NCBI RefSeq assembly: GCF_013315695.1
Contig: NZ_CP054353.1
Direction: 5' to 3' (one strand)
DNA: 64,000 nucleotides
Source of the DNA: Escherichia coli
Lineage (GTDB): Bacteria; Pseudomonadota; Gammaproteobacteria; Enterobacterales; Enterobacteriaceae
Under the pieces are notes generated by a model that was given only the letters and a program-made list of their open reading frames with translations, was not told the DNA's origin and did not search any database. Shown here piece after piece: positions 10,339 to 43,433 of the stretch. The position numbers and the translations under genes were made by a program. Each line of letters starts with the position of its first letter. Within the stretch, counting starts at the first letter, position 1.

Positions 10339-10800
10339 CACAAGGTCAGTCAATCTGACGAGGTGCTGAAAAAAAGTTAACGTCCTGGTAGGTGCAGGTG
10401 ACTTCAGAAGATGGCAAAACAGGTAAGACCGCAGGCAGGATACACCGAGAGGTAACAAGGGCAAGTTAGCCCGTAGAGGATGATTGGTACCTGCCTGGCG
10501 GATTTCATCATGGTTCGGGATAAAAATCCCATCAGAAACCGGATATATGGCTGCACCTACCCGTTTTATTACATAACTGAAGAAAGCATTGCATTCCGGG
10601 AGCGTCCATATATGTTACCTCGCGCCCGACCCGGTAGCCGTAAGGGATAAGCCGAGGGCACCGCGCAGCGGCGATTTTGTTCGCCAGAGCCCGGGGGTGC
10701 AGGGGGCGGCGGCGATTGGCCGCCCCCTGCGCGCTCCTTGCGCCAGTGATTATATGAAGCAATGCACATGACAGGAGCGCAACAGGATGAGAGACTGAAC
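10339..10800 (+). ncRNA. candidate IS-encoded guide (seekRNA/bridge-RNA-like) structured region at the 3' end of the transposase
   Basis: No credible ORF; GC-rich with strong hairpins, e.g. gcagggggcggc-ggcgattg-gccgccccctgc near 10700; IS1111-subgroup elements carry their guide RNA downstream of tnp. Confidence 0.3.
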
Positions 10801-14852: not shown

Positions 14853-15025
14853 AAAGTTCTTTTGCGCTGCATTGCTGGCGTAAATGTCAGCAATGCAGCA
14901 TTTCCTCACGATTCTTCTTTGACGATCGCACTTTTTGCTCGTTATGATGGCGTCGCTAGCCTCAGTAAATCCTTACTCCGGCGGTGCGCAACCCGTGCGC
15001 GTGAACCACTATCTGAATGCTCATC

Positions 15026-40259: not shown

Positions 40260-40646
40260 TTGTGGAGAAAGTTGATGCGTGATATTCAAATGGTTCTTGA
40301 ACGTTGGGGGGCATGGGTGGCAAATAATCACGAGGATGTGGAATGGTCATCTGTTGCTGCAGGTTTTAAGGGATTAATTCCTTCGAAAGTAAAATCCCGC
40401 CCGCAATGTAGCGATGACGATGGCCTGATCATTAGCTCTGCGATGACAGTTCTTAAGAAAAAGGAACCGTATCAATACGAATTACTGGAAATGTATTATG
40501 TGTATGGGGTTACATTACGGGTGTTGGGGGTAAAACTGGGGATATCACTTAATCAGGTTGTTATCAGACTGCAGAAAGCTGAAGGGTTTATTGACGGTTG
40601 TCTGGCAATGTTGGGGGTATCTTTAGAAATTGATTGTTACATATAG
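40260..40646 (+). CDS. late-gene antiterminator Q
   Basis: 128-aa ORF resembling the short Q proteins of E. coli cryptic prophages (QuuD-like); true start may be MRDIQMVLERW at 40275; sits directly upstream of the late region. Confidence 0.7.
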   Translation: MWRKLMRDIQMVLERWGAWVANNHEDVEWSSVAAGFKGLIPSKVKSRPQCSDDDGLIISSAMTVLKKKEPYQYELLEMYYVYGVTLRVLGVKLGISLNQVVIRLQKAEGFIDGCLAMLGVSLEIDCYI

Positions 40647-40685
40647 TAATAAATTCAATCAAAGTAAATAATCATATTTTATTAT

Positions 40686-40718
40686 AACCTCCTGATGATA
40701 CCTGTTCATTGGGAGGTT
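40686..40718 (+). promoter_or_regulatory. RBS-sequestering hairpin upstream of the 214-aa cargo gene
   Basis: aacctcc(40686-40692) pairs with ggaggtt(40712-40718), which contains the GGAGG RBS for the ATG at 40722. Confidence 0.45.
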
Positions 40719-41339
40719 ATTATGGATAAAAATGTAGAGCATGTATTAGTTGATGCAATTGAAAATAAGCAATCTTTAACAGTCGTTTACTTAGGAGGGA
40801 GCCAGCCCGGAACATTAAGGAATATTTCTCCGATTAGTATAAATGGGGATAAATTGCGGGCAAGATGCCATAGTTCTGGAGCAGTAAAGGTTTTCAATCT
40901 TGGGAAAATACAGTTACCCAGTGACTCCTGCGCGGTATCTATGCACTATGGAGATTTAGAAGTTAAAGCTTATGAGACGATGCAGAGCGTAAATGACAAC
41001 TTTCATGCCCTTTATCCTGAAGGACGATGGGGTGTTGATTTTAATGAGCATCGCTTTGCTTTATTTGATTTTTTTAAAAACGGGAAACGAAAAAAAACGG
41101 CATTTATGGCAATTGAGTTCAGGGAAAGAGATGAAGAGAAAATAATAACAGGTGTAACAATTGATATTGGTATATCTGGAACAGTGATTTCTGAGAAGTC
41201 CCGAATCCCAAAAAGACGACCATGGGTAGTGGTTGGTCCCGAACACGGAGAATACAGTACTTATTCAACTTTGGACAAGGCTGCTACAGCGTTTTTTGAG
41301 AGGCTTTCGTTGATAGCATCCGGCCTGGAAGATAATTGA
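40695..41339 (+). CDS. hypothetical cargo protein downstream of Q, family not recognised
   Basis: 214-aa ORF, AT-rich; probable start MDKNVEH at 40722 preceded by a GGAGG RBS; segment YLGGSQPGTLRNISPISINGDKLRARC...FNLGKI could be a small beta-barrel ligand-binding domain. Confidence 0.5.
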   Translation: MIPVHWEVIMDKNVEHVLVDAIENKQSLTVVYLGGSQPGTLRNISPISINGDKLRARCHSSGAVKVFNLGKIQLPSDSCAVSMHYGDLEVKAYETMQSVNDNFHALYPEGRWGVDFNEHRFALFDFFKNGKRKKTAFMAIEFRERDEEKIITGVTIDIGISGTVISEKSRIPKRRPWVVVGPEHGEYSTYSTLDKAATAFFERLSLIASGLEDN

Positions 41340-41468
41340 TTTTATGTTTGGTATTCAGAGTTCGCCGTGCTTAAGAAAGTCAAGATTCTAAAAATACTGA
41401 ATGAGCTACTTGTGTTATAACAAAAATGCTATTAGTGTGTTAAGAGTGGTTACTTCGCCACACAACTT

Positions 41469-41494
41469 AAACCCGCCACTGAGCGGGTTTTTTG
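41469..41494 (+). terminator. rho-independent terminator
   Basis: acccgc-cactga-gcgggt stem-loop followed by TTTTTT. Confidence 0.75.
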
Positions 41495-41617
41495 TACCTG
41501 TAAACTTGGTGCAGTACAGTAAACACGCTGGTGGTCGTGAATACTGGCTTTTTATCTTGCTGGCTTTTTAGACAAGAGTTATTGGTATGTCACGTTAACC
41601 GGAAAGGGTAAAAAGAC

Positions 41618-41815: not shown

Positions 41816-41949
41816 AGGCTTTTTATTTGTGGTGAATGGGCGGCTGGTGGGGGGGCGACACCTGTCAGTCCTTTGCTTATGTGTTGATGATAATTTACCT
41901 TTTGGGGCTATAATTGAGCTAACCAATTGCTAATGAAAGTAAAATTATA

Positions 41950-42663
41950 ATGGCTGTTGTCTGTTCAGTTATCATGGTTTGCTCCCCAATTAATATTTTT
42001 CTTGAAAAGGATACGTTGTCACTTAAGCCAGGCTCAGTTGTTCTGGCCACCAAATGCATCAGGGAGCTTTTCCTTATGCATTATGGCAAAGTTAAAATTG
42101 TCGATATAAGCGAATCCGTCGTAAGTCAATATCTGGAAAGTCAGCATAAGCTGACGAGGACTCGTCTGACTGACATTCCGCTTTACCTGTTGCTGGAACC
42201 CAACAATCCTGCGTTGGCTGCGGCTTTAATTACCAGCCAGGGATTTTCCGGAGAGGCCACGGATATGTTTCTTATGATGGCCTGCCTGTCTCTGTTTGAA
42301 ACAGATGAACGGATGTCATTGTTTTTAAGTGGATGTTTATCCAGCATAAGTGCCAAAGTCAGGGCGATAATTCAGACAGATATATCAGCAAGCTGGACGC
42401 TTGGTGCGATTGCTCTACAGTTGCATATGAGTGAGAGTTTGTTAAAGACAAAACTGAAAAATGAAGGGGGCATGTTCAGTCGCTTGTTGCTGGAAGAGCG
42501 GATGCGTGTTGCTGTAAATATGTTATGTTCCCGGCATGGATATGGACAGGCTATAGCAGAAAAATGCGGTTATTCAAGCAGGTCCTACTTTATTTCTGTA
42601 TTTCACCGCTATTATGGCTTCCCGCCAGACAGATATGTATCCAGGCAAGGGCTTGATTATTGA
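41950..42663 (+). CDS. AraC-family transcriptional regulator
   Basis: 237-aa ORF with C-terminal AraC-type dual HTH (WTLGAIALQLHMSESLLKTKLK ... IAEKCGYSSRSYFISVFHRYYGFPP); AT-rich. Confidence 0.7.
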   Translation: MAVVCSVIMVCSPINIFLEKDTLSLKPGSVVLATKCIRELFLMHYGKVKIVDISESVVSQYLESQHKLTRTRLTDIPLYLLLEPNNPALAAALITSQGFSGEATDMFLMMACLSLFETDERMSLFLSGCLSSISAKVRAIIQTDISASWTLGAIALQLHMSESLLKTKLKNEGGMFSRLLLEERMRVAVNMLCSRHGYGQAIAEKCGYSSRSYFISVFHRYYGFPPDRYVSRQGLDY

Positions 42664-42691: not shown

Positions 42692-42767
42692 GGCCCTTTA
42701 GCTCAGTGGTGAGAGCGAGCGATTCATAATCGCCAGGTCGCTGGTTCAAATCCAGCAAGGGCCACCA
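42692..42767 (+). tRNA. tRNA with CAU anticodon (Ile2/Met-type; ileZ-like)
   Basis: Cloverleaf GGCCCTT-TA-GCTCAGTGGTGAGAGC..anticodon loop TTCATAA..GGTTCAAATCC..AAGGGCC-A-CCA. Confidence 0.85.
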
Positions 42768-42980: not shown

Positions 42981-43433
42981 AAATGTCTCACAATTCAGAC
43001 GGTTGACAGTTGTCTGTTTTGCGGGGAGTTTGTTAAAAGAAACTGGCATGGTGAATCCCCCTGTGCGGAGGGGCAATCAGCAACTGGTGTTTTGTCACCG
43101 ACCCTTATCCTTTCTGTGCGGGTTCAGGTGCTGATACTGAACTCACCGGGAGGCACCCGGCATCATGTGCATGATGATACAGATACGCGGCTTTAGCCCC
43201 TCTCCGGAGGGGCTTTCTTGTGGGCAAAAAAAAGCCCGAGTGGGTTCGGGCAACAGCATGAGATATACATTTTTATAATCGAATGGATTTTAACCAGAAT
43301 TCATAAGGCTGCGCAACTGCGCGGTCTTTTTCGAATTGCGGGCTGTCGTCTCTCTTCTGCCATTGTCCTGTAACTTCCGGACTTCAGCCCGCTCCTTATT
43401 TTACTCACAATATTATCCCGGCCGGGAGGATTC

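Follow-up and report, generated by a model that had tools for sequence, protein, structure and literature searches.

A stable hairpin over the start of a WYL-domain gene beside Q in an Escherichia coli lambdoid prophage, and a possible fold-back lock on read-through transcripts

We analyzed a 64,000-nucleotide (nt) stretch of Escherichia coli DNA (NCBI RefSeq assembly GCF_013315695.1, contig NZ_CP054353.1; hereafter the window), and focused on a hairpin at the translation start of a 205-amino-acid gene (40722–41339, + strand) that lies directly behind the antiterminator gene Q of a lambdoid prophage. The encoded protein has an N-terminal WYL domain, no helix-turn-helix (HTH), and a C-terminal alpha/beta domain of uncharacterised function. 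The hairpin is a real, non-random and conserved structure, and folding predictions support well the view that any RNA carrying its 5′ arm would be translationally locked. We propose, as a tentative reading on which our own judgement is almost evenly divided, that the hairpin is a cis-acting fold-back lock of the WYL module comparable to those of the insertion sequences (IS) IS10 and IS50, in which the step that would spare transcripts from a promoter of the module's own is predicted. The hairpin mechanism itself is textbook, and the case described here is a fresh instance of a familiar regulatory device.

A preliminary description of this DNA, made from the sequence alone, had noted that aacctcc (40686–40692) and ggaggtt (40712–40718) are exact complements. 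They are, but the claim was an understatement, in that these seven pairs form the core of a larger helix. Folding with ViennaRNA paired 40684–40698, the 5′ arm, with 40706–40720, the 3′ arm, in 15 consecutive pairs (13 Watson-Crick and two G·U) closed by the 7-nt loop UACCUGU (40699–40705), all on the + strand. The 5′ arm holds the anti-Shine-Dalgarno sequence CCUCC (40688–40692) and a conserved, non-initiating ATG (40695–40697); the 3′ arm holds the Shine-Dalgarno (SD) sequence GGAGG (40712–40716), which stands 5 nt from the ATG of the gene and not 4 nt, as first given. Past a single U40683·U40721 mismatch the helix extends further, with 40678–40682 pairing to 40722–40726, that is, to the AUG and the two nucleotides behind it, so that the start codon is paired too. 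The stem of the window allele thus amounts to 20 base pairs (bp) with one mismatch, or about two helical turns. The same start codon at 40722 was also called by the NCBI Prokaryotic Genome Annotation Pipeline.

Predicted stabilities were high. The 37-nt hairpin core alone folded at −20.0 kcal/mol, and the 81-nt segment 40660–40740 folded at −23.3 kcal/mol (z = −4.2), a value that none of 200 shuffles matched. The occlusion of the ribosome-binding site that had been claimed holds in this fold, which pairs the start codon as well as the SD. An SD and AUG base-paired in a stable local helix are what define an SD-sequestering cis-regulatory hairpin, and this is the arrangement predicted here. Only two stems of at least 15 uninterrupted pairs exist on the + strand of the window, and this hairpin ties for the longest; shuffles that keep local composition give an expectation of about 0.35 such stems per strand. 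That one of them coincides exactly with a translation start goes far beyond what chance would give. The sole other 15-bp uninterrupted stem (14866–14899) lies in the allD/fdrA intergenic region, and among 45-nt folds of the window a GC-rich palindrome near glxK (10693–10737, −40.7 kcal/mol) is the most stable.

We also estimated the cost of opening the start site. Exposing positions −15 to +13 of the gene costs 21.7 kcal/mol when −70/+60 nt of context are folded, which ranks first among 60 annotated genes (mean 9.3, standard deviation 4.1). The genes nearest to it in opening cost all start within the preceding open reading frame (ORF), and ribosomes translating that ORF presumably open them.

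The hairpin region is at least 99% identical in 51 of 5426 complete E. coli genomes, and a version 69–76% identical is found in 22 more. IMG/VR yielded 49 further loci belonging to the same two lineages. At least one of the 22 genomes of the diverged lineage (O43 RM10042) carries an stx2 prophage, in which the module lies between Q and stx2. The arms differ between the lineages at five positions, and four of the differences keep pairing: A-U to G·U, C-G to U·G, U·G to U-A, and G·U to G-C. Over seven distinct variants, 93.9% of cells were paired, versus 36–56% when the partner was slid. The extension pair 40682/40722 is U-A in the window and C-G in the GTG-start variant of O43; the ATG variant of that lineage cannot form it. 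Within the 99% lineage, three single-nucleotide polymorphisms fall in or beside the stem, two of which strengthen the helix. T40710C converts G·U to G-C; T40683A, the common allele, converts the U·U mismatch to A-U, which yields 21 uninterrupted pairs and −27.3 kcal/mol and also changes TATTAT to the consensus TATAAT. In one prophage an IS1 copy sits in the hairpin loop with CCTGTTCATT duplicated, leaving the arms 0.8 kb apart. The hairpin travels with the gene, as phage PPyecE_EH1910 is without both. The pattern of conservation appears to favour pairing at the RNA level.

Attempts to widen the comparison had little yield. Two additional candidates (P0003 and P0006; one an error-rich assembly, one a truncation) proved to belong to the same two lineages, and neither a word-index protein search nor an exhaustive HMMER search returned a relative between 72% and ~35% identity. 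The gene was not found in 50,697 GenBank phage records, apart from two distant homologues.

The protein belongs to a family of ~970 representatives at 50% clustering, most of them ~195 amino acids long. No curated family name applies to it, and NCBIfam and PADLOC were uninformative. WYL transcription regulators such as DriD, CapW, BrxR and PafBC combine an N-terminal HTH or winged HTH with WYL and WCX domains, a layout that the 205-residue protein does not share. Its ORF is intact in 48 of 57 related loci. Gene or hairpin has been disrupted independently in about eight of the 57, by insertion of IS5/ISKpn26 or ISVsa5, by the IS1 in the hairpin loop, and by several premature stops that leave 86–144 amino acids. 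Recurrent disruption suggests that the gene is dispensable or costly.

The genomic setting determines which transcripts can reach the gene. Over the region of interest, the window is 100% identical to the chromosome of extraintestinal pathogenic E. coli (S88, MS7163). The lambdoid prophage lies downstream of ybcJ-folD, integrated next to a tRNA-Arg gene that neighbours intD, and on the + strand its genes run RusA, a KilA-N protein, a DUF968 protein, Q, a 75-nt spacer, the 205-codon ORF and a 65-codon ORF, followed by an AraC-type regulator, three tRNAs, a nanS-p-like esterase and the lysis genes. Q itself (40275–40646, +) is annotated as such in RefSeq and belongs to the Q21/Q82/Q933 family (PF06530; Pfam E = 1.5e-47; PDB Q21 E = 5.6e-10). 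It is 85% identical to the Q of the O43 Stx2 prophage, and the identity covers an HTH-like segment, a putative DNA-recognition helix, that differs in other Q alleles. Since Q and the WYL gene share a strand and only the 75-nt spacer, in which no terminator is predicted, separates them, transcripts from outside carry both arms of the hairpin.

The preliminary description had taken the translational control to be layered on Q-dependent transcription. Our placement of the late promoter pR′ contradicts this. In the Sakai Stx phages, the primary pR′ start was mapped 258 nt upstream of the 3′ end of tR′ (Sy et al., PMC7547250). Counting back from tR′ in Sakai Sp5 puts that start at AAGAGTGG, ~20 nt past the Q stop codon, with TATCAT ahead of it. 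The Sakai element TTAAGAGTGGTTAC...CCCGCC...GCGGGTTTTTT is present in the window at 41440–41495, downstream of the 205-codon gene. By homology to Sp5, pR′ would occupy 41410–41446 (+), with TTGTGT at 41410–41415, a 17-nt spacer, TAGTGT at 41433–41438 and a start near AAGAG (41442–41446). TTGTGT-17-TAGTGT has the same offset as in Sakai, falls in the top 0.2% of a position weight matrix (PWM) scan, and keeps its arrangement in the O43 lineage. Within 41410–41495 it is followed by AAGAGTGGTTAC and then by a conserved terminator-like hairpin, CCCGC...GCGGG with T6 (41472–41495, +). This hairpin, 3′ of pR′ in the window, comes almost directly after Q in phages without the WYL gene, and in PPyecE_EH1910 the pR′ element lies ~40 nt after Q. 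The location of pR′ rests on homology, and for the Q allele of the window it is putative; some stx2d phages are without the canonical pR′ site (PMC6266700).

Between Q and the putative pR′ lie 763 bp (40647–41409) of 34–40% GC, versus 55–60% upstream. We conclude from these comparisons that this segment is most probably an AT-rich insert between Q and pR′, and that the hairpin would belong to the insert, that is, to the WYL-gene module, and not to Q. The left end of the insert (40647–40683, +), from the Q stop to the hairpin, is an AU-rich unstructured leader with GC content down to 34% and an 11-nt indel relative to the diverged lineage; it is possible that the leader serves as a ribosome standby site or promoter region. 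The WYL gene, whose stop is at 41339, lies upstream of the inferred pR′ and is therefore not under Q-dependent antitermination from it. Its transcripts would come either from the early operon, reading through Q, or from a private promoter. Although cargo of the stx type, situated between pR′/tR′ and the lysis genes, is Q-dependent and occupies the same neighbourhood, the WYL gene is on the other side of the inferred promoter. We rejected the idea that pR′ precedes the gene: no conserved sigma-70 site was found in the spacer after Q, the 11-nt indel splits any −35/−10 pair, and homology puts pR′ after the gene.

Translation of the IS10 and IS50 transposases is reportedly subject to fold-back inhibition on read-through transcripts. 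In these elements, transcripts from the element's own promoter start inside or after the 5′ arm; only those initiated outside fold back, and these are silent. The prophage module resembles them in that the 3′ arm of an inverted repeat covers SD and AUG; a −10-like hexamer abuts its anti-SD. It also has a comparable setting, the WYL gene lying directly downstream of a strong operon on the same strand. The differences are that the prophage gene encodes a WYL protein and not a transposase, and that its internal promoter is a predicted one. IS200, whose leader stem-loop is known from experiment to sequester the SD (PMC4513863), is a further precedent for the lock.

We propose that the module would work as follows. 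On read-through RNA from the early operon and Q, CCUCC and its flanks would pair with the SD and the adjacent AU helix would pair with the AUG, and the resulting helix of 20–21 bp would bar 30S subunits from the start site. The module would also have a weak private promoter, whose candidate −10 hexamer is TATTAT at 40680–40685 (+), reading TATAAT in the T40683A allele and TACAGT in O43. Among window positions, this hexamer ranks in the top 0.56% by PWM in the window allele, 0.14% in T40683A and 0.1% in O43. Transcripts starting at about 40692–40695, 7–9 nt past the −10, would lose CCUCC and hence would be translatable; after a 5′ truncation at 40692–40695, freeing the SD is predicted to cost ~2–3 kcal/mol instead of 13.6–15.8. 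The gene would thereby be independent of lytic-cycle read-through and expressed from its own promoter alone, most likely in the lysogen.

A similar design was found in distant homologues, 27–31% identical, of Pseudoalteromonas-type phages, in which SD and AUG lie inside hairpins of 9–12 bp. The annotated marine member PY3 has its homologue after the integrase gene, and the marine proteins carry a C-terminal extension of ~180 residues (374 amino acids in total). The sequence and register of the 5′ arm differ between members and the pairing is kept; between L077 and L075 there are one U-A to G·U double change and two wobble-compatible single changes. Opening costs of the marine start sites (17.0, 13.1, 12.7 and 10.9 kcal/mol) are the top ones among the 36 ORFs of those loci (mean 7.2, standard deviation 3.4). 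The marine group also shares a conserved TTGTTA-17-TAATCT (PWM top 0.07%) that ends exactly at the start of the 5′ arm. Burial of SD and AUG thus recurs where the surrounding sequences are unrelated, in marine phages and in an E. coli lambdoid prophage. A broader idea, to which we give rather little credence, is that HTH-less WYL genes of prophages are insulated from phage lytic transcription by an anti-SD embedded in the promoter, which would pass transcripts of the private promoter only.

Several observations weigh against the fold-back proposal. The fifth arm difference between the lineages turns an A-U pair into an A·G mismatch, and the third polymorphism in the 99% lineage, G40716A, loses a C-G pair and weakens the SD. 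Covariation is weak, coming from two E. coli lineages only, and a shuffle control was uninformative, as 341 of 500 shuffles reached the observed value. The opening cost falls to 16.6 kcal/mol (rank 5 of 60) with ±100 nt of context and is outside the top six at ±150 nt. It drops in longer context because the anti-SD can pair instead with the internal SD-like UUAGGAGG (40793–40800, +), which is complementary to the anti-SD CCUCCUGA and pairs with it when the local stem is made to open; the local hairpin nonetheless stayed the preferred fold in all contexts. UUAGGAGG encodes Leu-Gly-Gly of the invariant YLGGS motif, is also present in the O43 lineage, and contains the rare GGA glycine codon in both lineages. 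The candidate promoter has no recognisable −35 and received no call in a consensus scan, and its −10 is a TAnnnT hexamer, a common motif in AT-rich DNA such as this. The promoter step is a prediction from sequence. Lastly, no such hairpin was found upstream of most other distant homologues.

A first alternative, which we consider unlikely, is that the hairpin is a constitutive attenuator without a switch: the full hairpin would be present on all transcripts, and a costly or toxic protein would be kept very low. Rare initiation would then be aided by the AU-rich leader, at which ribosomes could stand by or S1 could bind. Such an attenuator would resemble the 5′ untranslated region (UTR) of IS200 tnpA. 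The hairpin is stable at all physiological temperatures, the 37-nt leader upstream is unstructured and AU-rich, and the independent disruption of about eight of 57 loci suggests a cost, all of which this alternative accommodates. It also has a precedent, as a stable stem-loop in the 5′ UTR of IS200 tnpA has been established experimentally to sequester the SD and strongly repress 30S binding (PMC4513863). The two cases are alike in the SD-sequestering 5′ stem, and the potentially harmful IS200 gene is kept very low; IS200 has in addition its structure on its own transcript, a separate terminator against impinging transcription, and the antisense small RNA (sRNA) art200 (PMC4513863). However, an opening cost of 13–21 kcal/mol predicts essentially no translation, and the intact ORF in 48 of 57 loci would then be hard to explain unless the gene has some other way of being expressed.

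A second alternative is that the helix is an RNase III element, cleavage of which would either activate translation or trigger 3′-to-5′ decay of the Q message. Lambdoid phages use such sites: the lambda N leader and cIII provide examples of activation by RNase III, and sib retroregulation provides the example of 3′-to-5′ decay. In cIII and at the RNase III site of the N leader, SD or AUG is occluded by mRNA structure, and translation depends on conformation or processing. The length of the prophage helix, about two turns (21 uninterrupted bp in T40683A, and 20 bp with one mismatch in the window), suits this idea. But the marine stems of 9–12 bp are too short, and for retroregulation of Q one would look for a hairpin after Q where the WYL gene is absent, and there is none. 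We regard an RNase III element as quite improbable. The WYL hairpin also differs from cIII, which has two near-isoenergetic conformers, in that its locked form is ahead by more than 10 kcal/mol. Processing also governs type I toxin mRNAs (hok, tisB, aapA1), in which a CCUCC anti-SD lock keeps the primary transcript inert until it is processed. The WYL hairpin shares with them the strong helix between anti-SD and SD; those mRNAs, however, encode small membrane peptides with cognate antisense sRNAs, whereas the WYL gene encodes a 205-residue soluble protein for which no antitoxin RNA was identified.

A third alternative places an intrinsic terminator or attenuator behind Q: with UUAUUAU following its GC-rich CCUCC/GGAGG base, the hairpin would block entry into the module unless RNA polymerase were antiterminated. 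The tail past the GC core has five U in 7 nt in the window and six in 8 nt in the diverged lineage, and phages of the 933W type have a terminator-like hairpin soon after Q. That hairpin is a different element, though, with its homologue at 41472–41495 of the window. The classical hairpin/U-tract discriminant was negative in every register (−16 to −41), as against +6, +18 and +24 for three nearby terminators, and a terminator scan made no call, a result that still allows weak termination. The marine homologues have no U tract. This explanation has, in our estimation, only a slender chance of being correct.

Slimmer again is the chance that the element acts at the DNA level, its imperfect palindrome serving a dimeric regulator as operator or belonging to a minus-strand promoter that gives RNA antisense to Q. 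Inside the hairpin DNA lies a minus-strand promoter-like site, TGAACA-16-TATAAT (40681–40708), which has 10 of 12 consensus matches and a PWM score in the top 0.01% of the window, with key positions kept in O43 as TGAACG ... TACTGT. Transcription from this site would run antisense into Q; AT-rich palindromic DNA could also produce such a match by accident. Yet the changes C to T at 40688 and A to G at 40684 degrade the DNA palindrome and keep RNA wobble pairs, the WYL protein is without a DNA-binding HTH, and the marine homologues keep the pairing despite the changed sequence and register of the 5′ arm. A second sigma-70-like site on the minus strand, TTGCAT-16-TACATT (40731–40764, top 0.09%), would be antisense to the ribosome-binding region of the gene, recalling IS10 RNA-OUT and IS200 art200. 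It survives in O43 but within conserved codons.

Of the modes of control suggested in the preliminary description, an RNA thermometer or coupling to an upstream reading frame starting at ATG 40695 is very improbable: the SD does lie within a stem, as in thermometers, and ATG 40695 is invariant in all variants, but predictions leave the SD at least 99% paired at 42 °C (opening cost 15.7 kcal/mol) and still paired at 60 °C, which excludes a thermometer as far as prediction goes, no Rfam family matches at the hairpin, and ATG 40695 has no SD, sits in the stem, and opens a frame that varies, with its stop, among three variants. Its frame matches that of the gene in the window lineage only; a 1-nt indel in the other lineage makes it the start of an ORF of 11 codons in O43 and of 23 codons in the 266917_2 type, so that no upstream ORF is conserved.

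Two further candidates were rejected. Coupling to translation of Q fails because the Q stop lies 38 nt (28 nt in O43) before the 5′ arm, too far for a terminating ribosome. For an upstream switch by an anti-anti-SD, the sole candidate, GGGGGU (40613–40618) inside Q, would form 6 bp over a 70-nt span and is outcompeted by the local stem.

Other features were observed in the same part of the prophage. The AraC-family regulator (41950–42663) has a promoter-like site of its own, ATGATA-16-TATAAT (41887–41914, 10 of 12 matches); flanked by terminator-like hairpins, it looks like a separate moron, and a 6-nt indel distinguishes its gene from the S88 copy. The first tRNA of the cluster (42692–42767) is tRNA-Met (CAU) by ARAGORN and tRNA-Ile in RefSeq for related prophages, and is probably of the lysidine-modified ileX type. 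Rfam matches in the interval that separates the tRNA cluster from the nanS-p-like esterase gene were to the sRNA STnc100 (43017–43225, +, 131.7 bits) and to AsxR (43229–43281, −), the latter at 63 bits, exactly the gathering score, and overlapping a weaker AgvB match.

If our reading is correct, the map of this class of prophages, which includes some Stx2 phages, must be corrected, in that the gene adjacent to Q is an insert and not late-operon cargo; pR′ and the Q-binding site should then be looked for at a distance from Q that exceeds that of 933W-type phages by ~760 bp. The hairpin would likewise provide a concrete case of a phage accessory gene silenced on read-through transcripts. Were the broader idea of insulation true as well, the protein would have to harm lytic growth, for instance as a defence effector or as a sensor confined to the lysogen, and fold-back inhibition would be a general strategy for insulating morons and not a peculiarity of insertion sequences. 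The gene itself represents a widespread, uncharacterised WYL-only family that is apparently expressed under tight restraint and is frequently lost through IS insertions or truncations.

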